Shown here: in pieces, positions 19,575-49,714 of the stretch
How positions within the stretch are numbered: the first letter of the stretch is position 1
Layout of the letters: the number at the start of each line of letters is the position of its first letter
IMG/VR virus record: IMGVR_UViG_3300015263_000944
Location: 171,395-235,394 of that record
DNA: 64,000 nt
Strand: one strand, 5' to 3'
DNA from: a virus
Notes under the pieces: model-generated
What the model was told of the DNA's origin: nothing
Databases searched by the model: none
Seen by the model: only the letters and a program-made list of their open reading frames with translations
Made by a program: the position numbers and the translations under genes

Positions 19575-19637
19575 CCCCGAATTCCATTGATAGCCAATAC
19601 ATACTTTAAGAAGGTTGAGAATTCAAGGAGGTAGCCC

Positions 19638-20364: not shown

Positions 20365-20373
20365 TTTGATCTC

Positions 20374-20667
20374 CTATGGCTTCTTGCCATCTACGTCGTA
20401 ACCCTGTTGTTTCGTCGTCAGCTTAAGATACCCACTGCATCCATCGCCGAGCGGCACACCTTGTTTGCGTGGATCTTGCCCCTTCTTCTTCACATCTTTC
20501 AACCAGTCGGCCAACTCGATATCAATGATCTTGGCGTCTGGGGACTTCTTCTTACAAACATACACGATGTTGCCTTTGTCGTCCATGTCTTCATCGAGGT
20601 AACGGCACTGTTGGTCGCCGCCCCAGATGTAACAGACATCTTTCAGATGTTTTTGAGTTAGGGCCAT
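20374..20667 (-). CDS. Hypothetical protein (start at MALTQK)
   Basis: ORF track. Confidence 0.4.
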   Translation of the reverse strand: MALTQKHLKDVCYIWGGDQQCRYLDEDMDDKGNIVYVCKKKSPDAKIIDIELADWLKDVKKKGQDPRKQGVPLGDGCSGYLKLTTKQQGYDVDGKKP

Positions 20668-20671
20668 AGTT

Positions 20672-21187
20672 TCACCACACAAATACTTCTTTCCCAAAGT
20701 CAGAAATCAGGATTGATTTCTGGTGGTCGATTTCGTGTTGAAAGACGACGCCCTGTTGAATAAGTGACAGGGCGTCGTCGATCTCAACTATTTTCAAACC
20801 ATTTTTCTCTTCAAGCATATAACCAAACAAATGAACTTTGCAAAAGCGTTTCACTTCGAAGAGTCGCAATTGACCCTCTGGGGACCGAATTGACAGACAC
20901 CCCTCGACAGAGACGACCTGTTCTTCGTTTTCTGTAAGTGGACTGTAATCGCAGTTGATAAAGTAACCGTACTTGTCTTTAGGAACAAGAGGACATTTGC
21001 CGTCACCTCTCACAAGGAACAGTTTCCACGGTATCCCGACTTGGACGGCACTGATACCAATACCACGCTCCTTGTCGCAGACCTCTTGCATTTCTTGACA
21101 GACCTTGTAGACCTTGATCAAGTCGTCCAAAGGGACATCTACGATGTCGTCAAGTTTGGGGATTTGCCCCGTTTCCACAATCATCAT
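20672..21187 (-). CDS. def: Peptide deformylase
   Basis: Three PDF motifs: GIGISAVQVG, EGCLS, QHEIDH. Confidence 0.85.
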   Translation of the reverse strand: MMIVETGQIPKLDDIVDVPLDDLIKVYKVCQEMQEVCDKERGIGISAVQVGIPWKLFLVRGDGKCPLVPKDKYGYFINCDYSPLTENEEQVVSVEGCLSIRSPEGQLRLFEVKRFCKVHLFGYMLEEKNGLKIVEIDDALSLIQQGVVFQHEIDHQKSILISDFGKEVFVW

Positions 21188-21519
21188 ACGTCATTTGCCT
21201 TTGATTCATCACTTGCCGCTGGAGGAGTCGCCGTCAGCTTCTTATACAGGTTAGTTACCTGAACCGACAGCCATTTCTTCAGTTGCTCTGGGTCCGATCT
21301 CAGATGCACAGGGATCTTTAAGACCACAGCCTTGACTTCTTCATCAACTGGCGTGCCGATGACGATTGGATCATCATCAGGGTCCAGCTTGACAGCCTGT
21401 TCAATCAGATTGCCAACATACGAAGAAGCAGACAGCCCCTTTCGCTTGGAGAATTTCTTAAGCTCCTCATGTAGCTCTGGCCGGATGGCGATGCTCATGA
21501 CTTTCTTGTTTTTGCTCAT
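21184..21519 (-). CDS. Ribbon-helix-helix (CopG/Arc-like) DNA-binding protein
   Basis: MSIAIRPELHEELKKFSKRKGLSASSYVGNLIEQAV typical RHH beta-strand plus helices; start chosen at MSKNKK to avoid overlap with S21. Confidence 0.5.
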   Translation of the reverse strand: MSKNKKVMSIAIRPELHEELKKFSKRKGLSASSYVGNLIEQAVKLDPDDDPIVIGTPVDEEVKAVVLKIPVHLRSDPEQLKKWLSVQVTNLYKKLTATPPAASDESKANDV

Positions 21520-21526
21520 AACTACC

Positions 21527-21850
21527 TCACCTGTTTTTGTCTCTCCGCTTTTTCTTGCCCTTGCCTTGATTTGCCATGGCTTTCTTGATGAGTCCGGTCG
21601 GAGCCTTGACACGTTCGCCACGTTGAAGCTTTTCTTCCAGCAATTCCATCTGGAGCTTCTTCACTGCGGCCTTCCGCTTCTTACGCTGCTTCTCAGACTT
21701 GCTTTCGTAGAACTGGTGTTCCTTGAAATCGTGCATGATGCCAGCGTTGCTCACTCTCCGCTTGAACTCAGTGAACATTTCCTTGAAGTTCTTGTGGGGA
21801 TCGTTGTACTTCTTCTTGAGTTCAACTCTTACTCGTGTGGCATTAGCCAT
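21527..21850 (-). CDS. rpsU: Ribosomal protein S21 homolog with K/R-rich C-terminal extension
   Basis: MANATRVRVELKK...NFKEMFTEFKRRVSNAGIMHDFKEHQFYESKSEKQRKKRKAAVKK matches the S21 pattern; GGAG RBS before ATG at 21850. Confidence 0.75.
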   Translation of the reverse strand: MANATRVRVELKKKYNDPHKNFKEMFTEFKRRVSNAGIMHDFKEHQFYESKSEKQRKKRKAAVKKLQMELLEEKLQRGERVKAPTGLIKKAMANQGKGKKKRRDKNR

Positions 21851-21911
21851 GGTCAGTCTCCTTACTTGTGATGCCTCATCATAGCGATTGGGCGAAGCCC
21901 ATAGTAGATCG

Positions 21912-23042
21912 CTATTTGCTCTTAGACGAGTTGATGAAAGTGACGCCCAAGCGTCGAGCCTTCCGTTGCCGAACCGTATCATATGATACCGTCTCATATG
22001 ACTCGTTCGTCGATCCCCATTCCTGACCTGCAAGCGTTGGAGCGAACTCTTTCAACCTGACGATGATCCCGTCAATGATGCTGTTCTTCCAATCGCTCGG
22101 CTCGCCAGCCATGAGCATCGTCGAGAACGACCACAGGTATTGCTTCGGGCTTAGGCAACACAAGTCGTCAATCTCATACCCTTTGTGCTCCATGTATCTC
22201 TGTCGCTCGTCAACGACCAAGAATGGAGTCCTAGCCGCAATGGCTAAGTTGGATATCCCGGAATGCACATCCAGTACCAGCCCGACATACCGCATCGCCG
22301 CCAAAACGTCTGTGACGTTGCGTGGCACCAAGTAGATGCAACGCTGGGCGAATTCTGTGGACATGTCATATGTGAACCAGTTCTGATATACCACCGGAAC
22401 AAAGTCTGCCGCCAACAACTCCTCAATCAACGTCTCCCAAAACAGCTTGGGAACCGTAAGGTTCGTTGCCTTGCCTTTCTGCCACGACCACATCCTTGTG
22501 GTAGGGTAGATGAAGACTTTGCGTCCACTCTTCCTCGACATCTCAGTCAAGAAGTTCTGTGAAAGCTTGTTGGCAGACGGTATCTCGGGCAAGTATCTTC
22601 TAATGTCCGGGAATGTTTCAAAGTATTTCGCAGTAAGCCCAAAGTCGTACAGTTCTTTAAGGTCACGCATCGTGACAATTCTTACAGACTCCATGAGCCT
22701 GTGAGTCAGTTCTGTAGCCAAAGCACTCGTATTGTAAAAGTTATTAGCTTCTGATGCAAGTGTTTTTGCCACAGATTCGTCGTCTAAACACCAATACTCG
22801 TCCACATATGGGAAGAGCCCCTGAAGGCCCGGCCAAGAGCAAAGTATCAGATACTTGCCTGTAAGCTCCTTATATGGCCTCAGAAGTAGGGAGGAGAGGA
22901 CGAAAGCCGATCTGAGATCTCCATAGAAGGGCATTGCGACGACGTTCGACGGGACCGAAGGCATGTTCTTTTCCTTATAGAACTCCCTTCGATAGCCGGT
23001 GCGTTCCGCTACCCTCTGAATGAAATCACTTGTTTGGCTCAT
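21912..23042 (-). CDS. GT-B glycosyltransferase, GT9 (heptosyltransferase)-like paralog 1
   Basis: C-terminal VGLVLDVHSGISNLAIAARTPFLVV resembles the heptosyltransferase GNDSGPMHLAAALGTP motif. Confidence 0.5.
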   Translation of the reverse strand: MSQTSDFIQRVAERTGYRREFYKEKNMPSVPSNVVAMPFYGDLRSAFVLSSLLLRPYKELTGKYLILCSWPGLQGLFPYVDEYWCLDDESVAKTLASEANNFYNTSALATELTHRLMESVRIVTMRDLKELYDFGLTAKYFETFPDIRRYLPEIPSANKLSQNFLTEMSRKSGRKVFIYPTTRMWSWQKGKATNLTVPKLFWETLIEELLAADFVPVVYQNWFTYDMSTEFAQRCIYLVPRNVTDVLAAMRYVGLVLDVHSGISNLAIAARTPFLVVDERQRYMEHKGYEIDDLCCLSPKQYLWSFSTMLMAGEPSDWKNSIIDGIIVRLKEFAPTLAGQEWGSTNESYETVSYDTVRQRKARRLGVTFINSSKSK

Positions 23043-28959: not shown

Positions 28960-29391
28960 TCAGATTTCAATGGTGGACTTGAAGGTGTTTGTTTCGGGAT
29001 CAAATTTGAGAGTTGTGATCAATTCCCAGTGCGGGTCGGCCTTCGGGACGTACTCTTTTTGTGTGTAGAACATGGCTTCTATGACGAATTCGTACTCTTT
29101 TGCCGCCACTTCGTCATCTGACATGCCCGCCAGAAGATCCTCGCACATCTCCCGACAAATCCGGTAGCAATCCGGCATCCGGGCGCAATGGATCTTGTTC
29201 ATAACCATCGAAGCCTGAAACGCCTTGTCAATCTTCAGCAGATTGATGATGTCTCGCTTCTCAGGGCCATCGCCGAAAATAGCGACGGCAGAGAACTTCG
29301 CCATCACCTGCCCAGCTTTCGGGCCGTGCTTGCGGGTGTCGAAGAAATAGTCGTGAAAATTGCTGTCGTCGATGATGACTTCTTCTGTCAC
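28960..29391 (-). CDS. Hypothetical protein
   Basis: ORF track. Confidence 0.4.
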   Translation of the reverse strand: MTEEVIIDDSNFHDYFFDTRKHGPKAGQVMAKFSAVAIFGDGPEKRDIINLLKIDKAFQASMVMNKIHCARMPDCYRICREMCEDLLAGMSDDEVAAKEYEFVIEAMFYTQKEYVPKADPHWELITTLKFDPETNTFKSTIEI

Positions 29392-32270
29392 AGATCCTCC
29401 AGAATGTCGAAGCCTTCTTCGAAGGTCAGGTCCGTCAGGATCGACTCATCGGGCTTCTCAGGCTTGGGTATCGTCTTCATTACTCTGATGCGATAATCCT
29501 CATCTTTCGGCGGCAGTGTGTTCCGCTTATGCTTCGGAACGCTGTCGAAGGTGAAAGTGTTATATCCACCAGATGGGGGCCTCATGCGAACTTTCAGCAG
29601 AGCACCCTTCTTCAATTCGTCCTGCCATCTGGTGTAGTCGTCTGACCAGATATTCATCTTGGCCTGCCGACTATTCGCATCCTCAAATTCAACAGAGTAA
29701 AAAACGACACCATTCTTGCTGGTTCTTTTCCGAACCGACAAGATCTTCACTTCGATGGGCGCAGGGGCGTCACCATCTTTGTCGCATTCTTCAAGGAAGT
29801 AGTCGATGGTGCGACCAGTGAAATCTGGACTCGATTCCAATTCATGATTCCATTGGAAACCATAGTATTGAGACTCGGCCATCGGATATGTCCGCTGGTC
29901 AAAGACCATCATGTAGTCATTCAGCACGGCTACTTCTTCTTCGTCCAACTTCACCGACGCCGCATTGAACCCATCCATCGTGATCGGATTCTCATCATCG
30001 TCCTTCTCATTCTCCTCGAATCGACGCACGCTGGTTGCTCGTTTGTTCGACAAATCGCTGAGCATCTTCGCCACAGAAACCTGTCGCACTCGATCCTCAC
30101 CCTTGTACTTGTAGGGCACGTCACGGACGATATGTTCAAAGCGTTCTTCCCAGAGCTTCTCAGCCTCTTCAGTGAAGCGAGCCATCTTATCGAAGTCGGG
30201 ATCGCTCTCAGTGATCTCAGTGAGAAGCAACTCACGCAATTCTTCATCCTTCTTGACCATCGAGCCTTCGAAGCGTTGTTGACGCTGCCGACGCTTGGTG
30301 ATTTTGTCTTTGAAGAACTCATGGAACTTCCGCAAATGTTCTCTGTCATAGTGCGGCTCCAGTTCGTCGAACACGCCCAGAGCGATGAGGGCTTTGAGCG
30401 GCGCACCATCCGTTCCAAATTTTGTAAGGAAGTCCGGGAAGTCCTTGTACGGCTGATTCTCCACGATGCGATCAGCCACCGCTTCCCCGATGCCCTTGAT
30501 GTTCTTGAATCCGAAGTAGACCTTCCCATCAGCGATGTTGAAGTTCATCTTCGACTTGTTGATGTTCACCGGACAAACCTCAATGCTATGTTTCTTGGCA
30601 TCCAGTTTGTACTCACGGAACTTCTCGTGATCCTTCTCACACATCAGCGTGGCTGCATAGAACTCCAGAGGATAATGCGCCTTCAAATACAGCAGTCGTG
30701 ACGAGATGTAGGTGTAAGCACAAGCATGGGACCGGTTGAACCCGTATTCGGCGAATGACTCAATTTGATCCCAGAGATCACTGACGAACTCCAGATTCGC
30801 CCCGAGGTTCTTCTGGCCGTTCGTCAAGAACATCTCTTTGTACTTGGCGAACTGAGACACCTTCTTCTTTGAGATGGCTTTACGCACTTTCTCAGTGTGC
30901 ATGTCAGGAATGTTCCCGACGATACGCAAGATGTCCATGACTTGTTCTTGGTACACAAGAACGCCGTAGGTCTTGCCGAGACTTTGTTCCATGATCGGAT
31001 GGATGTTATATGGCTCGCCGCCCTCACGGTCGCCATCACGCCACTTCTTGCGTTTGCAGTAGCGGGCGTCCATCCCCATGTTCAACGGGCCGGGACGATA
31101 GAGAGCCGAATAGGCCACCAGATCTTCGAAGCTGGTCACACCACCACGCTTCACCAGCTTGCGAATACCTTCGCCGTCAAACTGGAAGATACATCGCAGG
31201 TCGGCTTTGTTAGCCATCTCAATCGCAGCAGGATCATTGAGATAAGAGATGTCAGACCAATCGGTGTCCCCCTCTCTGGCACAGATGGATGTAAGACCAT
31301 ATCGCTTCTTCACGAGTTCTGCCGCCAGAGCGATCTGCATGAGGTTGTTGATGACCAGAAGGTCGAACTTGATCAAGCCCACCGGCCCAAGGTCTTGATG
31401 GGCGAGGCCCTCAGACCATGCCGAGCAGATTACACCGTTGGGATGCTGCTTGTTGACCTTCCGCACTTCGAGCGGCACGAAACCATCGATTCGCTTACTG
31501 GAGATAATCAGACCTCCAGCATGGACGCCAGAGTGAGTGTTGCGGCCCTGAAAGAGTTTTGCCGCTTCGGCGATCTCTGGGTTCTCTTCGCAGTAGAGGG
31601 CAAACTTCACATATGCGGTGTCGGCAGGGACGCTGCCTTTGGCTTTCCGAAGTTCAGAGAACTTCTGAACCCAATCCACATCGCCGGTCTCCAACTCCTT
31701 CTTAATCTCATCCTGCTCTTCTTTGGTGGCGATCTGGAAGGTGGCGATTTCAAAGATCTTGTCCCACTCCAGCGGCTTGCCGTCGTCATCCTTATCTTCA
31801 AGCATCGACGTGATGCCTTGAATCTCATGAATGTCAGCCCCATGCACACGGGCCATATCCAAGATGGATGACTTGATGCCCGCCGTTCCGTAGGTGCCGA
31901 TCTCACAAACCTTCTCTTGGCCGTAGGCTTGAGCCGCCCACTGCTCTTTGAGGTAGTCTCGCACCGGCTTCAAGAAGTCGATGTCGATATCGGGGAACTC
32001 GCCCTGAATCCAAGTGTTGGGCCGCTCGATGTCGAACTGTCCTGTGAGATCCAACAGGTAGTCGATGAGGTTGTTGTGTTCGTTCTCTGGGAAGATTAAG
32101 TTTTCCGCCCGAAACTTATCGTGAAGGCCAAGAAGGTACTCATGCTCAGCCTGAGCATCGATTTCCTTAAGCTCTGACTTCAGCCGTTCCTTGTACCTGA
32201 CATCCTGCATCAAGCCTCGCTTCTCCATAGATGCAAGGCACAAGCGGATTAGCTTGTCTCGTTCCTTCAT
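29388..32270 (-). CDS. dnaE: DNA polymerase III alpha (DnaE-type) polymerase core, C-terminal fragment of a split gene
   Basis: EFPDIDIDF catalytic motif about 100 aa from start; GLIKFDLLVINNLMQIALAAELV (GLLKMDFLGL-like); length 960 aa matches the palm/thumb/fingers/OB region. Confidence 0.85.
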   Translation of the reverse strand: MKERDKLIRLCLASMEKRGLMQDVRYKERLKSELKEIDAQAEHEYLLGLHDKFRAENLIFPENEHNNLIDYLLDLTGQFDIERPNTWIQGEFPDIDIDFLKPVRDYLKEQWAAQAYGQEKVCEIGTYGTAGIKSSILDMARVHGADIHEIQGITSMLEDKDDDGKPLEWDKIFEIATFQIATKEEQDEIKKELETGDVDWVQKFSELRKAKGSVPADTAYVKFALYCEENPEIAEAAKLFQGRNTHSGVHAGGLIISSKRIDGFVPLEVRKVNKQHPNGVICSAWSEGLAHQDLGPVGLIKFDLLVINNLMQIALAAELVKKRYGLTSICAREGDTDWSDISYLNDPAAIEMANKADLRCIFQFDGEGIRKLVKRGGVTSFEDLVAYSALYRPGPLNMGMDARYCKRKKWRDGDREGGEPYNIHPIMEQSLGKTYGVLVYQEQVMDILRIVGNIPDMHTEKVRKAISKKKVSQFAKYKEMFLTNGQKNLGANLEFVSDLWDQIESFAEYGFNRSHACAYTYISSRLLYLKAHYPLEFYAATLMCEKDHEKFREYKLDAKKHSIEVCPVNINKSKMNFNIADGKVYFGFKNIKGIGEAVADRIVENQPYKDFPDFLTKFGTDGAPLKALIALGVFDELEPHYDREHLRKFHEFFKDKITKRRQRQQRFEGSMVKKDEELRELLLTEITESDPDFDKMARFTEEAEKLWEERFEHIVRDVPYKYKGEDRVRQVSVAKMLSDLSNKRATSVRRFEENEKDDDENPITMDGFNAASVKLDEEEVAVLNDYMMVFDQRTYPMAESQYYGFQWNHELESSPDFTGRTIDYFLEECDKDGDAPAPIEVKILSVRKRTSKNGVVFYSVEFEDANSRQAKMNIWSDDYTRWQDELKKGALLKVRMRPPSGGYNTFTFDSVPKHKRNTLPPKDEDYRIRVMKTIPKPEKPDESILTDLTFEEGFDILEDL

Positions 32271-32283
32271 GGTTCGACCTTCC

Positions 32284-33312
32284 CTAGTCGTAATAGTCTG
32301 GCGGTACTTCTGGTTTACCGAAGCCTATGTTCCCTTCAAAGTCTTTGTCTTGGACGGGTTCCTTCATTTTCTGAAGGGTCTTGATGGCTTCATCGTATTC
32401 GTCGCCAATGATCACCACTGCCACAAAGAGTTCTTTAAGGTGGGCCAGCGACATCTCGTCAGTATCCTTTACCCACTGATTTAAGTCAATGTCGAGTTTG
32501 GAGATGTTCTCTTCGCCAATGAGGTGCTTAAAGTAAATCTCTCGTGATTCCGCAGTTGGGAAGCCGATGCGGAATCGTTTGTCGAATCGACTGGGCCGAT
32601 TCATGATGCGAGGTTGAAGAGCGTGCGGATAGTTGGTGGTCGCCAAGAATATCGTTTTGTCAACTTCGTTGGCTCCATCAAGGAGATTTAAGATCTCCGA
32701 TTCATTGTGCATTTCAAGAAGAGCGTCCAAGTCTTCCATCACAACAACGACTGGCGTGTCTGACTGGATTTGCTTCAGTTTGCGATAGCCCTCAACAAAG
32801 AGATATGGCTCTTGGAATTCAAGGACCACGCCGCCACGCTTCACCACATCTTGCATGATGAACTGAACGGTGCTGCTCTTGCCGCTCCCCGGAGGCCCAT
32901 GAAGAATGATGCCTCTCTTGTAGGTGATGCCATATTCCCTGAAGACATTTTCTCTGTCCCAGAACTTCTGTACTTCGCTGATCACACGATCCGACTTTGT
33001 GTCAGGAAACCTTAAGAGACCCTCTGTTTTTACAGGAATCTTTTCGAAGAAGATGCCCACGTTGGGGGCACTCTTAATCTCATAGACTCCCGGCACCAGC
33101 CTGTCCACAGTGCGACTGGATGGGACAAAGATGCGATTGTCCGAAGTGGACCATTGACAGTATGTTTGTTCGATATCTTTTTCTTCTTCATCAACAGAGC
33201 AGTTTCCGTAAGCTGGCATAGCATTCCTCCTTGATTTGGCACGGGGAGCCTTCCCCATCTTGTCTAGGGTTCTCAGAGCCTTCCTGAATCTCTCATCCAA
33301 ACTTTTAGACAC
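32284..33312 (-). CDS. AAA-family ATPase
   Basis: Walker A GPPGSGKS; Walker B VVVMEDLD; SRH-like NRPSRFDKRFRIG. Confidence 0.75.
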   Translation of the reverse strand: MSKSLDERFRKALRTLDKMGKAPRAKSRRNAMPAYGNCSVDEEEKDIEQTYCQWSTSDNRIFVPSSRTVDRLVPGVYEIKSAPNVGIFFEKIPVKTEGLLRFPDTKSDRVISEVQKFWDRENVFREYGITYKRGIILHGPPGSGKSSTVQFIMQDVVKRGGVVLEFQEPYLFVEGYRKLKQIQSDTPVVVVMEDLDALLEMHNESEILNLLDGANEVDKTIFLATTNYPHALQPRIMNRPSRFDKRFRIGFPTAESREIYFKHLIGEENISKLDIDLNQWVKDTDEMSLAHLKELFVAVVIIGDEYDEAIKTLQKMKEPVQDKDFEGNIGFGKPEVPPDYYD

Positions 33313-33753: not shown

Positions 33754-34310
33754 CAGAACTGCTCCCCGGACCTTGGGTTGGACACGAACAGGATTTCGAC
33801 AGAATACGACCCCAGATCCCAGAACAGGGAGATATCATCGAGTTTGGTGTCTTCCAAGGCGGCACCACTCGACAACTGGCAACTTGGGGTCGCCGTGTCT
33901 GGGCACTGGATACCTATGGCGGAATGCCAAGTGAAGACTTCAGTGCCGAACATGGCGATCACGATTTGCCGGGCAAGTTCAACCCGTCAGAAGGCCCATG
34001 GGGCGAAATGAGCGTTTGGAGAATGTTCAAGGATTTCCCAAACATCTGTCCGCTCAAGGGTCGATTTGTAGAGACCCTACCTATCATTCCACCAAGTATC
34101 CAGATTGCCTTTGCTTATATGGATTGTGATCTGTACGAATCATACCATCAGGCTTTCTCGTGGCTGGAGAAGCATCTAATGCCGAAAGCCCACGTTTTGA
34201 TCGATGATTACGGGGCCTGTGCTGGCTGCCGCAAAGCTGTTGACGAATGGTCGGCAGATAAGCCTATCGAATGGATCATCGCCTGCAAGCACTTCATTTG
34301 GAAACAATAA
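33750..34310 (+). CDS. Class I SAM-dependent O-methyltransferase (TylF/MycF-like)
   Basis: IIEFGVFQGGTT (motif I), LDTYGGMP, AYMDCDLYESY, DDYGACAGCRKAVDEW. Confidence 0.7.
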   Translation: MTELLPGPWVGHEQDFDRIRPQIPEQGDIIEFGVFQGGTTRQLATWGRRVWALDTYGGMPSEDFSAEHGDHDLPGKFNPSEGPWGEMSVWRMFKDFPNICPLKGRFVETLPIIPPSIQIAFAYMDCDLYESYHQAFSWLEKHLMPKAHVLIDDYGACAGCRKAVDEWSADKPIEWIIACKHFIWKQ

Positions 34311-35082
34311 CTTGACGAGGCACCTTTCCCTCATCCCACAACGACTGAATGGGAGAGATGATTGATGGCAAAGATGGATCTCCATAGACCCTGAATACTG
34401 TTGGGAAATGCTGAAGATACAACGCCGAGTATTCATCCAGATAGTCCTCGATGGTACAATCTGTCATCAAAAACCCCTCTGAGAACATCCGTTGTCCATT
34501 ATCTTGATGGTGAAGCAGTTCGCCAAAGCGTTTCTTGACTTTCTCTAGCGACCTATAATGGCATATGCCATTGGAAACAGCCGCCCCTTTCGTTTGGACA
34601 ACAATAGTCTGCCTTTTCTTTCCACGCATAATTTTTTTGGAGAAATACATCGGCCCACAAACACTACACAAGTAATCACACCTTTTGTTCTCCAACATCC
34701 TAATCAATTCTGCATCAAATCCATTCAGAGTCGGGATGTAGTCGTCCTCCATCAAGATGTAGTAGTCAAACTGAGAGCCGTACTGATCAAAGATGCGGGA
34801 GTATTGGCCGTATGAGTAGCCCTTGTTTGGAGTGCGGACAACATGAATAGGGACACCTGACTTCAGTTGAGACAGGCTATTCATGAATGAAGTGTATCTC
34901 CCGCTCTCCTTTGGATTCTCGGGCCAACCCACTGTGATTTGATCCAGATTGTGTTGAATCGAATCTAAGCGGGCCAGATGTTCTTCGATGTAGCAACGCC
35001 TTTCATCGAAACCGCATCTGACTCGCTTGCCGCTCCATGTGGCAATCATGTAGTTTGTACGCATATCGTATGTACGATACAA
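34294..35082 (-). CDS. Hypothetical protein (possible glycosyltransferase-like)
   Basis: ORF track; MEDDY acidic motif only. Confidence 0.4.
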   Translation of the reverse strand: MYRTYDMRTNYMIATWSGKRVRCGFDERRCYIEEHLARLDSIQHNLDQITVGWPENPKESGRYTSFMNSLSQLKSGVPIHVVRTPNKGYSYGQYSRIFDQYGSQFDYYILMEDDYIPTLNGFDAELIRMLENKRCDYLCSVCGPMYFSKKIMRGKKRQTIVVQTKGAAVSNGICHYRSLEKVKKRFGELLHHQDNGQRMFSEGFLMTDCTIEDYLDEYSALYLQHFPTVFRVYGDPSLPSIISPIQSLWDEGKVPRQVIVSK

Positions 35083-35100: not shown

Positions 35101-35139
35101 AAAAAACCCGCTTCCCCTTTGCTGTTGGGGAAGCGGGTT
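35101..35139 (-). terminator. Rho-independent terminator downstream of tmRNA (13-bp stem AACCCGCTTCCCC/GGGGAAGCGGGTT)
   Basis: On the minus strand the stem is followed by UUUUUU (plus 35101-35106 AAAAAA). Confidence 0.6.
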
Positions 35140-35152
35140 CTTCTAACTTGAG

Positions 35153-35532
35153 TGGACCGGACGGGATTCGAACCCGTGTCTTGCTCTGCCGTCAAAGCGG
35201 CGTCTACGATCATGTCTCTCGATTTGAGTTGTCGGCCAGCCGGTCGCTCATGAGAGCACAGCTACCATGCCAGCTTAGTCGATTTGAGTTTCGCCCATCT
35301 CTCCTACGACTCGGAGATTCAGGACTATCCTGATGGCGGTACGTCGCAGACCTATCAGGCATCGGTCATTGACGCTTCGGACGGGCCTAGCCCGTCACTG
35401 CTTACGCAGCCATGCGAAGAGGAGTCGAAGTTTCGACAATTATGGTTTTGAATGACTTTTAACGTGGCCCGTCATTCAACCACGGATCGCAGCCATCTTC
35501 TCAGAACAGCCAATCGATTCCAATTCCAGCCC
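35153..35532 (-). ncRNA. ssrA: tmRNA (ssrA), one-piece, about 380 nt
   Basis: Minus strand: 5' GGGCUGGAAUUGGAAUCGAUUGG (cf. E. coli GGGGCUGAUUCUGGAUUCGACGGG). 3' ...ACGGGUUCGAAUCCCGUCCGGUCCA with T-loop GGUUCGAAUCC. Acceptor stem GGGCUGG/CCGGUCC includes G3-U70 and discriminator A. Putative tag ORF GUC|GAA ACU UCG ACU CCU CUU CGC AUG GCU GCG UAA (ETSTPLRMAA) at 35402-35434, preceded by CAAAACCAUAAUUGUC like E. coli CAAAAAAUAGUC. Confidence 0.7.
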
Positions 35533-35854
35533 AAGTTTTCAAAGATCAAGCCACCAGCCTGCCTTACCTGCACGTTGCCATCGTGTGCTATAGTCAGGGA
35601 GCCCCTGCCGTCATCGCAGTTCTCCCTCCAAGCCGAGGCGACCGGCTTTTCAGGTATGCAGACACCTTCACAGCCTTGCGGCTCCAGCGGGTGACTAAAT
35701 CCAGTTTTGCCTCGGAGAGCACTGCCGAAGGACGGAAACTGGAAACATCCCTTCGATCACGGCTCTTTCCCCGAGGGGCCTGTACGCTAGGCTCTCCCCT
35801 TTCGGGGTCGCTTCGGTCAGGTACTCTACATAGTATGGCACGGCCCGATTTCAG

Positions 35855-36082
35855 TCAAGCCGCTTCCCACATTTTCCTGCACTTGTCGAGCAGTGCGGGG
35901 TCTTTCGGAATTGCCTTGCGGATCTTCCCTTCTGTCTTGGCCTTCTCCATCGGGCAAGGATCGGTGTCCTTGTGGCGTCGGGGATTCCGGCACTCGCAAT
36001 GGCATCGAAACTTGCACCGAGGCGGCTCCTCAAAGAGTTGCCAATCGACCACGAAGACAGGTAGCATTTTGCATGTCAACAT
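35855..36082 (-). CDS. Small Cys-rich hypothetical protein (75 aa)
   Basis: Strong RBS GGAGGTG 6 nt before ATG; CKFRCHCECRNPRRHKDTDPC. Confidence 0.4.
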   Translation of the reverse strand: MLTCKMLPVFVVDWQLFEEPPRCKFRCHCECRNPRRHKDTDPCPMEKAKTEGKIRKAIPKDPALLDKCRKMWEAA

Positions 36083-41023: not shown

Positions 41024-42433
41024 TTAAGCTGCATCCGCATGTGGGATCGGCTGCAAGCTGTGTCGAATCTTCATCTGCTTACCGCCACGAGCCGGGCTCA
41101 AGAAACGACTGAATCTCAAGTCGTTGATGATTGGCTCCACATCATGCAATCGCAGGCAGTAAGCCACCAGTGAACCGCAAGCCGAACCACGGCCCGGACC
41201 CACGGCTTCTGAGCCATCGCCGAACCCAACAATGCTGGGGCCGACATGGCGAGCTTCATCTGTCATCTGTTTCTGAATCAGGAAGTAGCTGGAGAAGCCC
41301 TTCTCACAGATCAGGTCGTACTCTTCCCGGATGCGGGATGAGTATTCCTTGGTGGCTGGACAACCTCGGGCCTTGAAGCCTCGCAGGGTCTCTTGCCATA
41401 GAAGGTCATCGGCATCTGGAATCTTCGGGAGCTTGATGTCCCTGTCGATCTCAACGCCCTTTGCTTTCTCACAGATGGCGATGGTGTTTGCTTTGGCTTG
41501 TTTGAAGATCTCGTAGTCGATGATGTCTTTGTACTTCAACTCCCACATGGCGTTGAGTTCGTCTTCTGACTTCAGCCACAGATTGGTGTCCTGAAGCTCA
41601 AAGAGATCATCGGCTTGACCGGAATCGATCATGGCCTGCACTTCTTGAATCGTGCGTTTGTTTTGCTGCATCAGCATGAGTCGCTGATTGTGACTGTGCT
41701 CTTTCTTGATCATCGGGAGACCGTACTTCTCGTGTGCCCGAATGAGGAAGGCGTTGTACGGCCCCTGCATCTTCCAGTCGAGCATCATCATTTCAAGGTA
41801 GAAGTTGTCTCGACCGAGCATGTCGATGTAGTATTCCAACATTTGGAATCCCGCCTCATCGCCGCCCTCAAAGAAGGCTGTGGCTATTTCGCTGATGCCA
41901 CAACCACTGGTGAAAATGATGCCTTCCTTGTGTTCTCGGAGAGCATCATGGTTGATTCGAGGGCGATAGTAGTATCCGTGAATCCACGCCCACGACGACA
42001 ACCGAACGAGGTTTTGGTAGCCGATGTTGTTATAGGCAATAGCGAGCAGATGACATGATTTGCGGAAGATCTTCTGCTCTGGTGTTTGGGCTTTCGTCTC
42101 GGCATTGGGATCGCCAAGACTCTTGTAGAACTCAGCCGTATCAGAACGAGTGTTGGATTTGGGCTGCATCCGATTGACATACAACTCGCAACCGAACAGC
42201 GGGTACAAGTTGTGCTTCTCTGCTTGTTCGATCTGCTGGGGAACTGCGCCCATAACCCCGTGATCGGTAATGCAGAGATACTTCTGGTTGATCTCCTTCA
42301 TCCGCTGGGCATACTCCCACACCATGGCAAAGCCATCGAGAAGAGAGAAATCCGAGTGTCGGTGAAGATGCTCAAAGCCCATAATCGGATGGTGCATTAC
42401 TCGTCGCCTTCCTTGGTTCCGTTTTGTTGCCAC
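41024..42433 (-). CDS. dnaE: DNA polymerase III alpha (DnaE-type) N-terminal fragment: PHP domain through start of palm
   Basis: HLHRHSDFSLLDG PHP motif; ends GPGRGSACGSLVAYCLRLHDVEPIINDLRFSRFLSPAR (E. coli [36 protein letters not shown]), then about 20 extra aa and a stop. Confidence 0.85.
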   Translation of the reverse strand: MATKRNQGRRRVMHHPIMGFEHLHRHSDFSLLDGFAMVWEYAQRMKEINQKYLCITDHGVMGAVPQQIEQAEKHNLYPLFGCELYVNRMQPKSNTRSDTAEFYKSLGDPNAETKAQTPEQKIFRKSCHLLAIAYNNIGYQNLVRLSSWAWIHGYYYRPRINHDALREHKEGIIFTSGCGISEIATAFFEGGDEAGFQMLEYYIDMLGRDNFYLEMMMLDWKMQGPYNAFLIRAHEKYGLPMIKKEHSHNQRLMLMQQNKRTIQEVQAMIDSGQADDLFELQDTNLWLKSEDELNAMWELKYKDIIDYEIFKQAKANTIAICEKAKGVEIDRDIKLPKIPDADDLLWQETLRGFKARGCPATKEYSSRIREEYDLICEKGFSSYFLIQKQMTDEARHVGPSIVGFGDGSEAVGPGRGSACGSLVAYCLRLHDVEPIINDLRFSRFLSPARGGKQMKIRHSLQPIPHADAA

Positions 42434-43159: not shown

Positions 43160-43843
43160 CTACTCGGTGCTCCTTAAAGAATCAAGGTCAGGATAATCGC
43201 TGCTTCCCAGAATCCCATCTGCCAAACCATAAAAAACGGCTTCTTCGGCTGACATGTACCAATCGACCTCATCTTTAAGTTTGCGGTCAAAAAATTTGTA
43301 TGCCGTATCGTAAGTGGCCGTCTTCTTCCTCTTAAAGAATTCTGCTGTTTCTGAGGAAATGGCTTTTTCGGCAAAGATCTGCAACATACGCTTGCAGGCC
43401 CGCTCTTGGAACTCGGCTTCGTTTTTCAGAGCGTAGGGATGCACCATTGAGCCTCCCGAGTATCCGTGGTGCATCAAGAAGTGGCAGTCTGGCATCATGA
43501 TTCTGAGGTCTGCCGCTTGGAAGATGATGCCGCTCATAGAAGATGTCTGGGAGTATCCCAACATTGTGATCTGGCTGACTGCATACTCGATAGAATTGAA
43601 AACCGCCATGCCATTGTCCCAGCACCCACCGGCAGAGTGGAGATGGACCAAAATGGGTTTGTTGGGCGACTGATCGAGCAAATGCAAATTCTTAATAAAA
43701 GTCGTGGCTTGCCGGTAATCGACTCCCGGTTCTGACTCGTCGTCCTTGACATAGTAGCTGTGAAGGTAGATTTCCCTTCGATTGAGATTCACCTGATGAT
43801 TGTGGATGTCATAAAGAACTTGATCCTTGGACTGACGGGCCAT
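43160..43843 (-). CDS. ClpP-like serine protease (S14 family)
   Basis: ILVHLHSAGGCWDNGMAVFNSIEY (INSPGG-like), catalytic Ser in SSMSG, His in FLMHHG. Confidence 0.8.
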   Translation of the reverse strand: MARQSKDQVLYDIHNHQVNLNRREIYLHSYYVKDDESEPGVDYRQATTFIKNLHLLDQSPNKPILVHLHSAGGCWDNGMAVFNSIEYAVSQITMLGYSQTSSMSGIIFQAADLRIMMPDCHFLMHHGYSGGSMVHPYALKNEAEFQERACKRMLQIFAEKAISSETAEFFKRKKTATYDTAYKFFDRKLKDEVDWYMSAEEAVFYGLADGILGSSDYPDLDSLRSTE

Positions 43844-44724: not shown

Positions 44725-45045
44725 TTAGTCTCCCATGATCAGCGATCCGAGATCATCGTCGATGCCAGCAGGCTTGACGTATCCGGTCGCTTCGAGTTTC
44801 TTTTGTGTTCGATAGGCATTCCGAAGACTCATACAACAATCTTCGGCACGATCCCATCCTGCCGTCTTCCAGACATCTTTGAGTGGGCCGACGTTCTGCC
44901 AGCCCTTCTCTGTGAGGTATTCAGCCATCACTTTCTCTTCGGCCTGACGAGCCTCTCGCTTCTTTTCCTTTTGCTTCTCTCGACGGCGGGTCTTAGAAGC
45001 AGGTTCGTTGGCTCGCTTGGCACGTTGCTTTTTGGTTAGTGTCAT
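44725..45045 (-). CDS. Basic hypothetical protein
   Basis: ORF track; K/R-rich N-terminus. Confidence 0.4.
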   Translation of the reverse strand: MTLTKKQRAKRANEPASKTRRREKQKEKKREARQAEEKVMAEYLTEKGWQNVGPLKDVWKTAGWDRAEDCCMSLRNAYRTQKKLEATGYVKPAGIDDDLGSLIMGD

Positions 45046-46643
45046 TTCAGGAAATCCTTCTCATATTGTTCTCTGGACATGATGTGGACATCACTATCCA
45101 TGTTCGGACCATCGCAGACCAAGACGTATTCTTCCCCGTCAAGGTTCTGAGATCCCAGAACAACCACATTCTGCCAGATCATGTGAATTGAAGTGAGAAC
45201 CTCTGTGGCGTACTTGTGGTACAGCGGTCGTCCATCAGCGTAGTGCTGCATGAAGAACCAGCCTTTGCCCAAGTGGTTCGGGTCGGTCAACCTGATGTCA
45301 GGCAAACCGCCATTACAGTAGCGTTGGAGCATCTGTTTCTTGACTTCCTTGAAATCACGAGACGTGATCTTCCACTCGCCCGTTGACATGCGGCGGTAGG
45401 TGTAATACTGCATCTTCTCGGCGAACTCTGGAGTGAAGAATTCGTTGATCAAGGTGTAGTCGTTGTAATACTTCCTGACTTCGAAGACCTTCTCCATGCC
45501 GAGCCCAAGTTTCTTATCCCACTTGGCCTTCTCCCGCATGTTGGTGCATTCTTCCCATTCCTTGCCGAACTTGCCCTTGTTCCATCGATCTTCGATGTCC
45601 AAGAGAAGCTCGAAGCCCAGCTTGTATGGGTTCTGACTCCACTGACCTCCCAAGACTCGCATCTTGTGTTCGGCATAGTGCCAGATACCAGCCGCTTCAT
45701 CGTCCTGTCCGAGTGAGGCAAGGCCCTCCCGACAGAGTAGGTGGTAATCGACGAAACTGGCCCAACCTTCATTGATCATCTTCGTTTGTCGCTGAGGTTG
45801 GAAGTACATGGACTCATCATAGAGCATCGAGATGATGTCTTGCTGCCACGGCTTGAGTGGAGCATTATTCTTCAAGAATCCCATGATGTCTCGATCAGCA
45901 CGACCGAACAGGCCAAGGAATTCCGAAGCTTCTTTCTTCTCAATTCTCTCGTGTTCCTTCTCGATGTACGAGTCGGGGTTGACCCATTCGTCCATGTAGT
46001 CATGAGTGGATTTCAAACGTCTGGGAAAATGGTATTTTCTTTCATCCCTGACATTCTTGTTTTCAATCTTCTTTCGCTTCCATGCCTTCTGAGGATCAAT
46101 GAGCGTTTCGATTCGCATCACATGGTCGATGAACTCTGTGACACGCTCGCCGCCCCAACGCTTCATGTACTGACGAATTCGAGTGCTGTGATTCGCCAGC
46201 TTGTTCATCATGTTTTCGTCAGTCGGCCCAAAGAAAATGTTGTTCTTGAAGAAGTCGTTGTGGCCGATGGCGTGACAGATAACGTCCACGTTGTCTACCA
46301 ACGTGTTCGAGTCCATGCAGTAGATGTAACATGGATTGGTGTTGATCACCATTTCCGAGATACGGTACTGGTTGTATTCGTAACCACGACTCATTTCCTC
46401 ATATTCCATTCCCCACTTCCAGTGTGGGTATCGGACAGGGAAACCGCCGTAGCTGGCAAGCTCAGCCATTTCGTCGTAGCGGACAAATTCAACGATGATG
46501 GGATAGTAGTCCAACCCCATATCCCTGCAAGCCTTCTCCATCTGAGGAAGCAGTTCCTCCACTTCCTTGTGGATCTTCAGACCGGGAATGTTGTTGTCAC
46601 CAACCAGAATTGGTGTCCCGCTCATCATGTTAGATTTTGACAT
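45042..46643 (-). CDS. SpoVR-family protein
   Basis: Full-length similarity pattern to SpoVR/YcgB (about 530 aa; HWKWGMEYEEMSRGYEYNQYRI, CHAIGHNDFFKNN). Confidence 0.85.
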   Translation of the reverse strand: MSKSNMMSGTPILVGDNNIPGLKIHKEVEELLPQMEKACRDMGLDYYPIIVEFVRYDEMAELASYGGFPVRYPHWKWGMEYEEMSRGYEYNQYRISEMVINTNPCYIYCMDSNTLVDNVDVICHAIGHNDFFKNNIFFGPTDENMMNKLANHSTRIRQYMKRWGGERVTEFIDHVMRIETLIDPQKAWKRKKIENKNVRDERKYHFPRRLKSTHDYMDEWVNPDSYIEKEHERIEKKEASEFLGLFGRADRDIMGFLKNNAPLKPWQQDIISMLYDESMYFQPQRQTKMINEGWASFVDYHLLCREGLASLGQDDEAAGIWHYAEHKMRVLGGQWSQNPYKLGFELLLDIEDRWNKGKFGKEWEECTNMREKAKWDKKLGLGMEKVFEVRKYYNDYTLINEFFTPEFAEKMQYYTYRRMSTGEWKITSRDFKEVKKQMLQRYCNGGLPDIRLTDPNHLGKGWFFMQHYADGRPLYHKYATEVLTSIHMIWQNVVVLGSQNLDGEEYVLVCDGPNMDSDVHIMSREQYEKDFLK

Positions 46644-47638: not shown

Positions 47639-48473
47639 GAATGCTGTCCCTCAACTCTCGAATTTCCTGATGCGTCGGATCGTCGCTTTCATCGAGATTG
47701 ACAAGGAACTCGTCGGACACTTCTGGCCTTCCGCCCTTGGGATAGCAGAAAATGTTCAACGAATTGCCTGCATTCAAGACATCCACCTTGTGATACTTGA
47801 AGTTGTCTGGATTGTAGACAGGAGTTTCATGCAACTCCCAGTCATAACCCACATGCTCCACGAATCTCAAAATGTCTTCCCTGTTGTCGGCAAAGTTCAC
47901 ATACAACAGAGGGGTGGACCTATCGATGGTGCGACGGCAACCATTCAGTACAGAAAGCTCCATGCCCTGCACTGACACCTTAATCAACTTGGGCTTCGCC
48001 AAGTTGACATCATCGATGGCAATTGATGCTACCGGATTATCACATTTACGTCCATCTCGGTCCTTGGCATTCAACAATGTCGCCAAGCTGATTTGTGATA
48101 GATCGACTTCACCATTGATGTCAACCGATGGGAAGTAACAGACGCCTTTGCTGGAATCTGTCACCGAACGGTTGAATGCTTGGATGTTGGTGATCTGGTT
48201 GAGAGCGATGTTGCCGCACAACATGAAGTACAGGAACGTGTGAGCCTCAATTGCCAAGACGTAACCCTCTGAGGTAACGTGCTTCGCCAAAGGAATCGTG
48301 ATCGATCCAATGTTGGCCCCAACATCAACGACCACATCACCCTTGTCAGTCAGCTTCTTCAAGAATTCTACCTTGAAAGAATTGACTTCTCCGTAGGTGT
48401 CCAGAGAACGACCTACCAATTGATCGTTCTCTAAGAACATCATGTCTCCATACTTCGTGCTGCTGACTTTCAT
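47610..48473 (-). CDS. FkbM-family methyltransferase
   Basis: VVVDVGANIGSITIPLAK motif typical of FkbM MTases. Confidence 0.65.
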   Translation of the reverse strand: MKVSSTKYGDMMFLENDQLVGRSLDTYGEVNSFKVEFLKKLTDKGDVVVDVGANIGSITIPLAKHVTSEGYVLAIEAHTFLYFMLCGNIALNQITNIQAFNRSVTDSSKGVCYFPSVDINGEVDLSQISLATLLNAKDRDGRKCDNPVASIAIDDVNLAKPKLIKVSVQGMELSVLNGCRRTIDRSTPLLYVNFADNREDILRFVEHVGYDWELHETPVYNPDNFKYHKVDVLNAGNSLNIFCYPKGGRPEVSDEFLVNLDESDDPTHQEIRELRDSIHGTGLQTVS

Positions 48474-49714
48474 GCTGCTGCCTCTCTCTTATCGTTTTCT
48501 TTGCCCAAGATCTTACGGATGGCTTCGATGATCTGCTCGTTGCGATCTTCTTCGCTGAGATTGGGGGCATAACCCCAGTTCCCGAATCCGAAGTTCCCAT
48601 CATCGTTATCCGATTCATCGGGGCCGACATTGGCCGTCTCGATATAAGAAGAGTCCAACTTTCCGCCTTTTAGGGCGTTGTCGAGGTGTTGTTTCACACT
48701 ATCTTCGTATCTCCAAGAACAAACCTGCGTCATGCCCAACAGATTAACCTTGCTGGGACCGAGTTCTTCTTTGATGATCTTGATCATCCGGCTGTTGTCG
48801 TCGCCCCAGTTGTCACCATCTGAGAAGTAGAAGATGTAGACGTTGTACTTCTCTGGCGGATATCTGTTTTCCAACTGATCCGCAATGGCCCGGAACGCCG
48901 ACGAACACATTGTTCCACCACCATAACGATAGGTGTAGAACGCCTCTTCGTTGACTTCCTGTGCTCTGGTGTCGTGGACAAAGTAGCAACGATCCACCTT
49001 GTCATAGAATTTTCTGATCCAGCAGTCGATCCACCAACTCATGTCGCTGACAATATCGCAGCGATAGTCGTCCATCGACGCCGAGCAGTCTCGGGCGAAG
49101 AAGATGACAGCATTCGAGGAAGGAATCTTGATCTGTTTGTACTGTCGATATCTGAAGTCGTTGTTGATGGGCGTCAGCAATCGAACTGGCACCTTGCAGC
49201 CCGGCACCCACTGGAGGTTCTCCAGTTCGCCGGTCATCGACAATCGCTTCAGTGCTTCCTTCATCGTTCGACGAGGATGGCGCAACGCTTGCAAACCGAC
49301 CCGAGAGATATCGTTGTACTTGATCTTGATCTCTTCGTAGGTTTCATTGGGCTTGGGCCTCATGCGAGGCAACTTCAGTTCGTCCTGCATGAACCGCAGA
49401 ACGTCATCCATATCGATAGTGATCTGGATGCCTTCACCGGGATCTTCCCCAGCTTTGTTGCCACCCTTGCCCGGTTGTGGGTCTCGCCCAACAACGTCGC
49501 CTTCTTTTCCCGGCCCACGACCGACACCTTCCCCGTTGCTTCCAAACACGAAGCGAGGAATCTCGATCTGCGGGATAGAGATCGTCATCTTGCCGCCCTT
49601 GGGCCGCTGACGAACGATGGACCCCGACTTGATCAGTCTTTTCAATTCACGTCGGGTGCGTCCAGAGATCACATCTCTGAACTTCTTATGATCTTCTTGG
49701 ATTCTCTTTGGCAT
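48470..49714 (-). CDS. YeaH/YhbH-like DUF444 (vWA-fold) protein
   Basis: Gly-rich N-region GPGKEGDVVGRDPQPGKGGNK, then vWA-like FFARDCSASMDD; length and order match DUF444. Confidence 0.8.
   Translation of the reverse strand: MPKRIQEDHKKFRDVISGRTRRELKRLIKSGSIVRQRPKGGKMTISIPQIEIPRFVFGSNGEGVGRGPGKEGDVVGRDPQPGKGGNKAGEDPGEGIQITIDMDDVLRFMQDELKLPRMRPKPNETYEEIKIKYNDISRVGLQALRHPRRTMKEALKRLSMTGELENLQWVPGCKVPVRLLTPINNDFRYRQYKQIKIPSSNAVIFFARDCSASMDDYRCDIVSDMSWWIDCWIRKFYDKVDRCYFVHDTRAQEVNEEAFYTYRYGGGTMCSSAFRAIADQLENRYPPEKYNVYIFYFSDGDNWGDDNSRMIKIIKEELGPSKVNLLGMTQVCSWRYEDSVKQHLDNALKGGKLDSSYIETANVGPDESDNDDGNFGFGNWGYAPNLSEEDRNEQIIEAIRKILGKENDKREAAA

Follow-up and report, generated by a model that had tools for sequence, protein, structure and literature searches.

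The 64,000-nucleotide (nt) stretch of the IMG/VR virus record IMGVR_UViG_3300015263_000944 analysed here (positions 171,395 to 235,394 of that record; 'the window' below means this whole stretch) carries on its minus strand a gene for a one-piece transfer-messenger RNA (tmRNA, ssrA). We regard it, with a probability of roughly 0.85, as a functional ssrA gene of a huge bacteriophage related to the 595-kb phage genome LR756511. The gene is real but ordinary in kind, and the valine codon at which translation is predicted to resume on it and the MAA ending of its peptide tag are minor variants. An earlier note, made from the letters of the stretch, had proposed a phage-encoded one-piece tmRNA at this place, with GAA as the resume codon and (A)ETSTPLRMAA as the tag.

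Identity, phage origin and conservation of the gene

ARAGORN, run on the whole window, calls a single RNA gene, a tmRNA at 35152-35532 on the minus strand with the tag VETSTPLRMAA followed by a stop. The Rfam tmRNA model RF00023 matches 35150-35532 on the same strand over its full length (model positions 1-374 of 374) with 88.5 bits (E 5e-33), the gathering score being 47. These are two of the checks that the earlier note had named, and both find the gene where it was said to lie: 35532 is G1 and 35153 is the discriminator A exactly, to which we add the strand, left unstated there. A two-piece (permuted) arrangement was also considered and rejected. The corresponding model, RF04321, gives 16.5 and 16.2 bits (gathering score 47) and the ARAGORN call is not flagged as permuted; with scores this low, we take the gene to be in one piece.

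The tRNA-like domain can be read directly in the sequence, as had been described. The acceptor stem GGGCUGG/CCGGUCC is paired at 7 of 7 positions and includes G3-U70, the discriminator is A, and the T-arm ACGGG-UUCGAAU-CCCGU has a TPsiC-type loop, GGUUCGAAUCC. The discriminator is directly followed by CUC, so CCA is not encoded, a point missed before; it is encoded in 0 of 8 related tmRNA genes. Pseudoknot PK1 consists of stem 1 CGUGG/CCACG and stem 2 GAAUGAC/GUCAUUC and ends 12 nt before GUC, and at helix 5, whose loop holds the stop codon of the tag, the motif AUGGCUGC-N-UA(A/G) is kept in all relatives. The gene has every defining feature of RF00023 that can be tested. It resembles the one-piece tmRNA of E. 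coli and other bacteria in its tRNA-like domain with G3-U70, discriminator A and TPsiC-type loop, in PK1 about 12 nt before the resume codon with U-A at positions -5/-4, in a short tag reading frame that ends hydrophobic-Ala-Ala with its stop in helix 5, and in three further candidate pseudoknot regions aligned by the covariance model. It differs from E. coli tmRNA in being phage-encoded, in its most likely resume codon, GUC (Val), in a tag that ends MAA and not LAA, in the lack of an encoded CCA, in a long leader with a conserved hairpin and in having no smpB nearby.

The phage origin claimed earlier is supported by synteny with LR756511, a curated complete huge phage. Twenty-two window proteins match a 42-kb stretch of that genome in conserved order, with identities of 62% for PrkA, 59% for SpoVR, 53% for a thiamine-pyrophosphate enzyme, 52% for DUF444, 51% for an AAA ATPase, 46% for peptide deformylase (PDF) and 41% for IF-3. 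The core part of DnaE has its best match among GenBank phages in the same genome (LR756511.1, 595,163 bp; 41.6% identity over 85% of the protein). LR756511, or SR-VP_PHAGE_COMPLETE_CIR-CU-CL_42_23, is a curated, complete and circular genome from vernal-pool mud, with no host assigned to it and 82% of its genes unclassified (Al-Shayeb et al. 2020 supplementary tables). Most open reading frames (ORFs) of the window have no Pfam or PHROG family, and GC content is uniform at about 0.50 across it, with no junction. The stretch lies on the JGI metagenome contig Ga0247387_10000633 (120,310 bp, sample 3300022562), and proteins identical to two window ORFs are recorded on a contig of 238,888 bp. At E <= 1e-20 the homologues of the AAA ATPase number more than 1274, and the top 120 share 55-76% identity with it. 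Because of the synteny with LR756511 and of AAA ATPase homologues on contigs up to 693 kb, the window appears to belong to a large clade of huge phages, and a bacterial origin or a prophage junction looks very unlikely.

Within this clade the tmRNA keeps its place. In LR756511 it lies immediately upstream of the AAA ATPase homologue, and in that genome and in 5 of 5 relatives that we fetched through the AAA ATPase (L022, 249 kb; L023, 173 kb; L024, 151 kb; L025, 221 kb; L026, 693 kb) a tmRNA occupies the same slot upstream of the AAA ATPase and the DnaE core, with RF00023 scores of 86-148 bits. The gene neighbourhood is common to all five fetched relatives; LR756511 also shares the neighbours PrkA/DUF444/SpoVR, PDF and IF-3, and its tmRNA likewise has a tag that ends MAA, no encoded CCA and a terminator of its own. 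Three more tmRNAs were obtained from IMG/VR through a motif of the leader described below (L028, L029, L032). In an eight-tmRNA comparison with helices assigned by hand, pairing holds in 56 of 56 cells of the acceptor stem, with G3-U70 invariant and compensatory changes at pairs 4-7; the T stem is paired in 40 of 40, and the two PK1 stems in 38/40 and 53/56, with compensatory changes at most pairs. The mean column identity of the related tmRNAs is 56%. Since the gene is kept in place and its structure is maintained through compensatory change despite this divergence, the comparison indicates that the tmRNA is under selection in the clade. The closest tmRNA to that of the window is found in L029 (UViG_3300031623_001144), a 68-kb IMG/VR contig; it is interrupted by a group I intron, which sits in the T-loop after GGGUU (RF00028, 96.3 bits). 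L026 and L029 have the same acceptor stem as the window and the same start, UA(A/G)UU/GUC-GAR (here and below a slash marks the first nucleotide of the resume codon).

ARAGORN calls the tmRNAs in two of the five relatives fetched through the AAA ATPase; those of L024, L025, L026 and L029, which score 60-111 bits with RF00023, are missed. Surveys of phage tmRNAs by ARAGORN alone thus undercount, at least three of this clade being missed.

The tmRNAs of the window and LR756511 are too diverged for blastn. Against GenBank phages, blastn of the window tmRNA and megablast of 20 kb of the window both returned no match, and the sequence is unrelated to other phage tmRNAs by blastn. In IMG/VR an exact search with the tag region and a locus search based on DnaE gave none; end-anchored tmRNA patterns gave none in metagenome contigs, a collection from which the source contig is absent. 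Over 185,579 species genomes the strict end-anchored pattern again gave none, and a loose one gave a single distant match, L019, on a 3-kb contig of a metagenome-assembled genome (CBDTVD010000265.1). This tmRNA shares the 5' sequence GAAUUGGAAUCGA with that of the window, and the neighbouring Nmad2-domain protein has its best named homologue (39% identity) in a metagenome-assembled genome of Planctomycetota, which may hint, weakly, at the lineage of the host. Seven IMG/VR contigs (L009-L015) match the last 23 nt of the tmRNA exactly; they were rejected as tmRNA, the match being only the T-arm and acceptor strand of tRNA-like sequences. These matches end after 24-26 nt; the one in L015 is the end of a tRNA-Arg gene in a tRNA array, and L013 carries a suppressor tRNA with the anticodon UUA.

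Resume codon and tag

The tag most likely starts at GUC and reads (A)VETSTPLRMAA, one residue longer than first predicted; the GAA proposed as resume codon is the second codon of this frame (35432-35434, tmRNA nt 99). We place the start at GUC because of the A at position -4, the 12-nt spacing from PK1, the ARAGORN call, the Rfam alignment and the relatives. With GUC as the resume codon the upstream sequence is U(-5)A(-4)AUU, 12 nt after PK1, a spacing as in E. coli; the coding part given by ARAGORN is tmRNA nt 96-131, and the Rfam alignment sets its consensus GCa over GUC. Among 555 tmRNAs no upstream nucleotide is better conserved than the one at -4, A86 in E. coli, which is also the chief determinant of the frame; A86U tmRNA is inactive in E. 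coli, where the resume codon lies about 12 nt after PK1 (PMC2481249). With the resume codon placed according to ARAGORN or Rfam, an A is found at -4 in every relative (Table 1). The in-frame tag ORF described before, ending ...PLRMAA-UAA with its stop in the loop of helix 5, is present.

Could translation resume at GAA (nt 99) instead, with GUC as the -1 triplet like that of E. coli UAGUC/GCA? The pentamer UUGUC is similar to UAGUC, GUC is the natural -1 triplet in E. coli (PMC2481249), and GUC-GAR is common to the three closest tmRNAs, so that this subclade cannot separate the two placements. A start at GAA would, however, put U at -4, where A86 is nearly invariant and its change to U inactivating (PMC2481249), and the appeal to an upstream sequence 'as in E. 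coli' is not supported. It would also lengthen the PK1 spacer to 15 nt instead of about 12; nt 96 is chosen by both ARAGORN and the Rfam alignment, and L023 has the identical UAAUU followed at once by the canonical GCA-AAC. We therefore consider resumption at GAA unlikely and keep GUC. Both placements lie in one shared reading frame, and the C-terminal peptide of a tagged protein would be ...AVETSTPLRMAA with the GUC start and ...AETSTPLRMAA with the GAA start. The usual resume codon of tmRNAs encodes Ala or Gly (PMC3968760); in LR756511 it is GCA. A valine codon is a minority choice overall that recurs in the clade.

The earlier note was right that the tag ends MAA, and overstated how unusual this is, since Met and Leu alternate in the clade (RMAA, RLAA, AMAA). 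The tags of the relatives end RMAA, RLAA, AMAA or ALAA, and their N-terminal part varies freely; those of L022 and L023 are AN(S/R)NVAPLRMAA, and L026, among the closer relatives, ends LAA. The Met/Leu swap at position -3 comes about by single-base changes (AUG, UUG, CUG). As Met and Leu alternate in this way, MAA can be read as a conservative variant of LAA that makes the same kind of tag. Some bacterial tmRNA tags, for example that of Borrelia, also end MAA. By its sequence the end ...LRMAA fits the hydrophobic-Ala-Ala degron pattern; C-terminal LAA is bound by ClpX (PMC3968760).

Expression signals and neighbouring genes

The terminator described immediately downstream of the gene is present; its stem has at least 13 bp, U6 comes directly after it, and the fold reaches -30.2 kcal/mol (z = -6.1). 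A simple terminator scan missed it because its 9-nt loop exceeds the 8-nt limit of the scan. On the other side, a sigma-70-like promoter is likely to be the start of the tmRNA precursor, and a promoter stands in the equivalent position before the leader hairpin in 11 of 12 related sequences. The arrangement differs from that of LR756511, where a promoter (TTGACA, 17 nt, TATATA) abuts the tmRNA and there is no leader hairpin, whereas the window promoter is about 290 nt away.

The leader hairpin begins 7-8 nt past the -10 element. Its flanks of 13 and 14 nt are identical in L022, L023, L025, L026 and seven IMG/VR contigs of up to 511 kb, while the apical stem-loop differs from contig to contig, in length as well as in sequence, and shows covariation: its first variable pair can form in 12 of 12 cases (CG, GC, UG, UA, GU). 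The consensus over the 12 loci is CCUGACCGAAG-[variable covarying stem-loop]-C(C/U)UAGCGUACAG(G/A)CCC, of which the 3' flank can also be written C(C/U)UAGCGUACAGGCCC. A covariance model built for it (R1) finds exactly one hairpin per locus, with 52.8-60.3 bits, and it is single-copy in the window. What follows it is a tmRNA, at 8-247 nt, in eight of the 12 cases and tRNA-Leu in one; nothing was detected in another, and two are cut by contig ends. Hairpin and promoter are shared with L029, L026, L022 and L023, leader length ranging from 8 to 247 nt among the closer relatives. Conservation of the hairpin exceeds that of the tmRNA. No Rfam family fits it at E <= 10, and a literature search with the leader sequence gave chance matches only. 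Parts of the remaining leader, between hairpin and G1, are conserved with L026 and L029, and about 150 nt are an insertion relative to both. The 322-nt gap upstream of the tmRNA was also tried as a structured RNA as a whole and rejected (z = -0.8 on either strand, no Rfam match at E <= 10); the conserved element in it is the first 49 nt only.

What could the leader do, then? Its variable spacing together with compensatory change argues for an element acting at the RNA level and not for a DNA operator. That it is a new RNA element dedicated to the expression or processing of the phage tmRNA seems to us unlikely; in that case it might be bound by a factor of phage or host, signal processive antitermination or stability, or be a leader RNA that is processed off. 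Among the elements described here, it alone could open up new ground.

Regarding the neighbours, IF-3, S21 and PDF, which the earlier note had placed in the same genome, are all three confirmed by profile matches (Table 1), and they stand outside their bacterial operon contexts. Every relative examined keeps the classical-clade AAA+ ATPase as a neighbour on the downstream side of its tmRNA. Among solved structures this single-domain protein comes closest to B. subtilis YjoB, AFG2 and p97/Cdc48, and not to clamp loaders. In the other direction, about 8 kb upstream of the tmRNA, the window encodes a ClpP homologue (Pfam CLP_protease, 2.4e-19), with Ser and His motifs kept as judged by eye. Speculatively, the AAA ATPase and ClpP might be linked to the degradation of tagged proteins, and, in the same unlikely reading as that of a dedicated leader element, the leader, the tmRNA without SmpB, the adjacent classical AAA+ ATPase and the ClpP homologue could form a phage-specific tagging-and-degradation module and not simply copy the system of the host.

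The two genes into which DnaE is split stand about 9 kb apart and enclose the tmRNA and the AAA ATPase. On the Pfam DNA_pol3_alpha profile the break corresponds to position 98-100, and no intein-sized extension is seen at the junction; DnaE is split likewise in L022-L026, unlike in LR756511, where it is a single ORF of 1179 amino acids. PrkA, YeaH (DUF444) and SpoVR are a stress- and sporulation-associated bacterial trio, here phage-encoded; they are 52-62% identical in LR756511, and in the window YeaH is separated from SpoVR by two inserted genes, a methyltransferase and a GT9-like one. Auxiliary genes of the window, several recognised by eye only, include PhoH, DnaJ, a bifunctional HldE, DHFR and ThyA, a GlpX-type fructose bisphosphatase, the thiamine-pyrophosphate enzyme adjoining IF-3, two dCMP deaminases and numerous glycosyl- and methyltransferases. 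Just beyond the window there is also a gene for a sigma-70 family factor. The ORF directly downstream of the tmRNA (34294-35082) was tried as a guide to the locus and abandoned, its homologues being in unrelated sugar-modification clusters without tmRNA.

Table 1. Features of the tmRNA locus and of related loci. Positions are those of the window or, elsewhere, of the sequence named in the first column.
Sequence	Feature	Positions	Strand	Basis or details
Window	One-piece tmRNA (ssrA), G1 to discriminator A, 380 nt	35153-35532	minus	ARAGORN, Rfam RF00023, pattern match
Window	Acceptor 5' strand GGGCUGG	35526-35532	minus	Pairs with CCGGUCC
Window	tRNA-like domain, 3' part (T-arm, acceptor 3' strand CCGGUCC, discriminator A)	35153-35177	minus	Sequence and eight-tmRNA comparison
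Window	Pseudoknot PK1 (tmRNA nt 49-83)	35450-35484	minus	Helix search and covariation
Window	Most likely tag frame GUC GAA ACU UCG ACU CCU CUU CGC AUG GCU GCG UAA = VETSTPLRMAA-stop (tmRNA nt 96-131)	35402-35437	minus	ARAGORN, Rfam, relatives, A86 rule
Window	Helix 5 CUGC-GUAA-GCAG, UAA stop in loop	35398-35409	minus	Rfam alignment, fold, helix search
Window	Intrinsic terminator CCCGCUUCCCC-(9 nt loop)-GGGGAAGCGGG, then U6	35101-35143	minus	Fold
Window	Sigma-70-like promoter TTGACT, 17-nt spacer, TACTAT	35830-35858	minus	Consensus scan
Window	5' leader hairpin UA-CCUGACCGAAG-[variable stem-loop]-CCUAGCGUACAGGCCC, 49 nt	35775-35823	minus	Cross-contig identity, covariance model
Window	Leader remainder, hairpin to G1, 242 nt	35533-35774	minus	Alignments
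Window	AAA+ ATPase, classical clade	32284-33312	minus	Pfam AAA 2.5e-14
Window	IF-3	13192-13728		IF3_N 2.7e-30, IF3_C 3.1e-25
Window	S21	21527-21850		1.5e-10
Window	Peptide deformylase	20672-21187		1.6e-14
Window	ClpP homologue	43160-43843	minus	
Window	DnaE, PHP/N-terminal gene	41024-42433	minus	
Window	DnaE, core gene	29388-32270	minus	
Window	PrkA	49795-51879	minus	
Window	YeaH (DUF444)	48470-49714	minus	
Window	SpoVR	45042-46643	minus	
Window	Auxiliary genes	799-1491, 5957-7114, 13742-15379, 53168-54535, 55673-57272, 63058-63945		
L018	Sigma-70 family factor	16389-16937		
L019	tmRNA	1254-1640	minus	Tag GNNYSYRMAA
LR756511 (L020)	DnaE	18996-22535		
LR756511	tmRNA			UAAAC/GCA; tag ANPEFAMAA
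L022	Leader hairpin	8626-8665		
L022	tmRNA			Tag ANSNVAPLRMAA
L023	Leader hairpin	8908-8958		
L023	tmRNA			UAAUU/GCA-AAC; tag ANRNVAPLRMAA
L024	tmRNA	9009-9405		UAACU/GGC; tag GNTVAPLRMAA
L025	Leader hairpin	7342-7394		
L025	tmRNA	7493-7888		CAAGU/GUU; tag ...TPVARLAA
L026	Leader hairpin	6896-6935		
L026	tmRNA	7030-7405		UAAUU/GUC-GAG; tag VEETRPLRLAA
L028	Leader hairpin	11334-11369		
L028	tmRNA			Tag ANDYVALAA
L029	Leader hairpin	3796-3840		
L029	tmRNA	~3100-3701	minus	UAGUU/GUC-GAA; tag VENTTPLRMAA
L029	Group I intron in tmRNA	3127-3353	minus	RF00028
L030	Leader hairpin	3480-3523		
L031	Leader hairpin	920-972		
L032	Leader hairpin	5021-5075		
L032	tmRNA			Tag AAPAALAA
L033	Leader hairpin	5193-5236		
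L034	Leader hairpin	6-61		

Alternatives, proposed action and meaning

Several observations weigh against a functional phage ssrA and have to be set beside the evidence above. The window tmRNA, at 88.5 bits, scores lower than most of its relatives. When the proposed pseudoknots PK1-PK4 are examined, PK1 is clear, and PK2-PK4 are candidate helices only, spanned by the Rfam alignment with several non-canonical pairs; PK2-PK4 are dispensable in E. coli tmRNA (PMC3968760). The minimum-free-energy fold contains a 5-bp hairpin, GUCGA-AACU-UCGAC (35424-35437, nt 96-109), which would sequester the resume codon, and an inhibitory helix at this codon has been discussed for E. coli A86C mutants (PMC2481249). 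A similar hairpin is possible in L026 (CGAG-GAAA-CUCG) and impossible in L029. The consensus scan finds no canonical promoter abutting the tmRNA, the nearest being the one about 290 nt upstream, and a CCA-adding enzyme was not found in the window, though maturation depends on one. Neither the window nor the 10 kb of flank read beside it contains a capsid, portal or terminase gene. The PHROG search for phage structural genes covered 20 proteins and had as its sole match a ClpP-type 'head maturation protease' family; with no structural gene in the window, the phage assignment therefore rests on synteny with a published phage genome. Finally, the 64 kb examined are part of a genome that measures at least 120 kb and probably exceeds 239 kb, so that SmpB could lie elsewhere in it.

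Do these points favour another explanation? A bacterial chromosomal ssrA, at a prophage or island junction or in a mis-binned bacterial contig, would agree with the lack of a structural phage gene in the window and with a contig that comes from a metagenome; ssrA is a common integration site, with fragments in prophages (PMC9004378), and some large plasmid-like elements carry similar translation genes (Al-Shayeb et al., PMC7162821). The gene is, however, full length, both its flanks are syntenic for tens of kilobases with a complete curated phage genome, and six other relatives, whose contigs measure 151-693 kb, have a tmRNA at the corresponding place. To this are added the position of IF-3, S21 and PDF away from bacterial operons, the uniform GC without a junction, the fact that no integrase was seen and the scans of species genomes keyed to the tmRNA ends, with none under the strict pattern and one distant match under the loose one. 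We hold a bacterial ssrA to be very improbable. A decaying relic without function deserves even less credence: 88.5 bits compared with 96-148 for four of six relatives, the lack of an adjacent promoter and the absent CCA would suit it, but all identity elements are intact, the tRNA-like domain and the PK1 stems are all paired, promoter, leader and terminator are conserved, and no relative encodes CCA either. It could also be that the RNA is made and is not mainly a degradation tagger, but titrates host SmpB or AlaRS as a decoy, times lysis by sensing stalled ribosomes, or counters host defence nucleases that cleave mRNAs. In line with this, the tmRNA would have to compete for host SmpB, no SmpB having been found in the window or in LR756511; sensing roles of tmRNA in phage development have been discussed (PMC7162821), phages can form their usual plaques on E. 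coli without tagging (PMC2481249), and the N-terminal part of the tag is free to vary. Against it, the whole clade conserves the C-terminal (R/A)(M/L)AA together with the stop codon, and in every relative the frame is open with A(-4), features that a pure decoy would not be expected to keep. We think such a role improbable, about as much so as a start at GAA, and continue with a functional, tagging phage tmRNA.

How would this tmRNA act? We infer the steps that follow from its sequence and from its relatives. Transcription would run from the sigma-70-like promoter through the leader hairpin to the gene's own intrinsic terminator. RNase P would cut the 5' end of the precursor, and the 3' end would be trimmed to the discriminator A, to which a CCA-adding enzyme would then add CCA, needed because it is not encoded, giving a mature 3' end ...CCGGUCCA-CCA. 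Host AlaRS would charge the tmRNA with alanine by way of G3-U70, and together with SmpB and EF-Tu it would enter ribosomes stalled on broken or non-stop mRNAs. Translation would resume at GUC (nt 96) and append (A)VETSTPLRMAA, whose hydrophobic-Ala-Ala end would be a ClpXP-type degradation signal.

The protein partners would probably be supplied by the host. SmpB is absent from the six-frame ORFs of the window (with a query 100% identical to annotated E. coli SmpB). In tblastn, two SmpB queries matched five 'uncultured phage' records, LR756501-LR756504 and LR745206, and LR756511 is not among them. Since SmpB was found neither in the window nor in this complete relative, the clade probably uses that of the host, and probably also host AlaRS, RNase P and CCA-adding enzyme. 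The likely benefit would be more capacity for ribosome rescue during infection, when the decay of host mRNA stalls many ribosomes, and the tmRNA would act alongside the phage IF-3, S21 and deformylase. The manipulation of host translation that the earlier note saw in this combination is plausible and had been proposed before for huge phages (PMC7162821).

About 2.3% of 18,146 phage genomes carry a tmRNA (PMC9004378). Phage G carries one with the tag AKLNITNNELQVA (PMC12484599), and methylophage Melnitz has a two-piece tmRNA with a glutamine riboswitch (PMC9004378). The window gene is like these in being a phage-borne ssrA thought to sustain or redirect host translation, and unlike that of Melnitz in being one-piece, with a leader that matches no riboswitch family. 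Huge phages with tmRNA, SmpB, IF1, IF3, S21 and PDF were described in 2020 (Al-Shayeb et al., PMC7162821), and the window fits this co-occurrence of translation genes, with IF-3, S21 and PDF beside the tmRNA and SmpB not found.

Few phage tmRNAs are on record, and this gene is a further, well-documented one. The comparison across the clade yields a concrete tag, most likely (A)VETSTPLRMAA, in which Met and Leu appear interchangeable at position -3, and the clade appears to rely on the SmpB of its host. The tmRNA thus emerges as a conserved, syntenic gene, by all indications under selection, in a widespread clade of huge phages with genomes of up to about 690 kb, and not as a stray fragment of a host.

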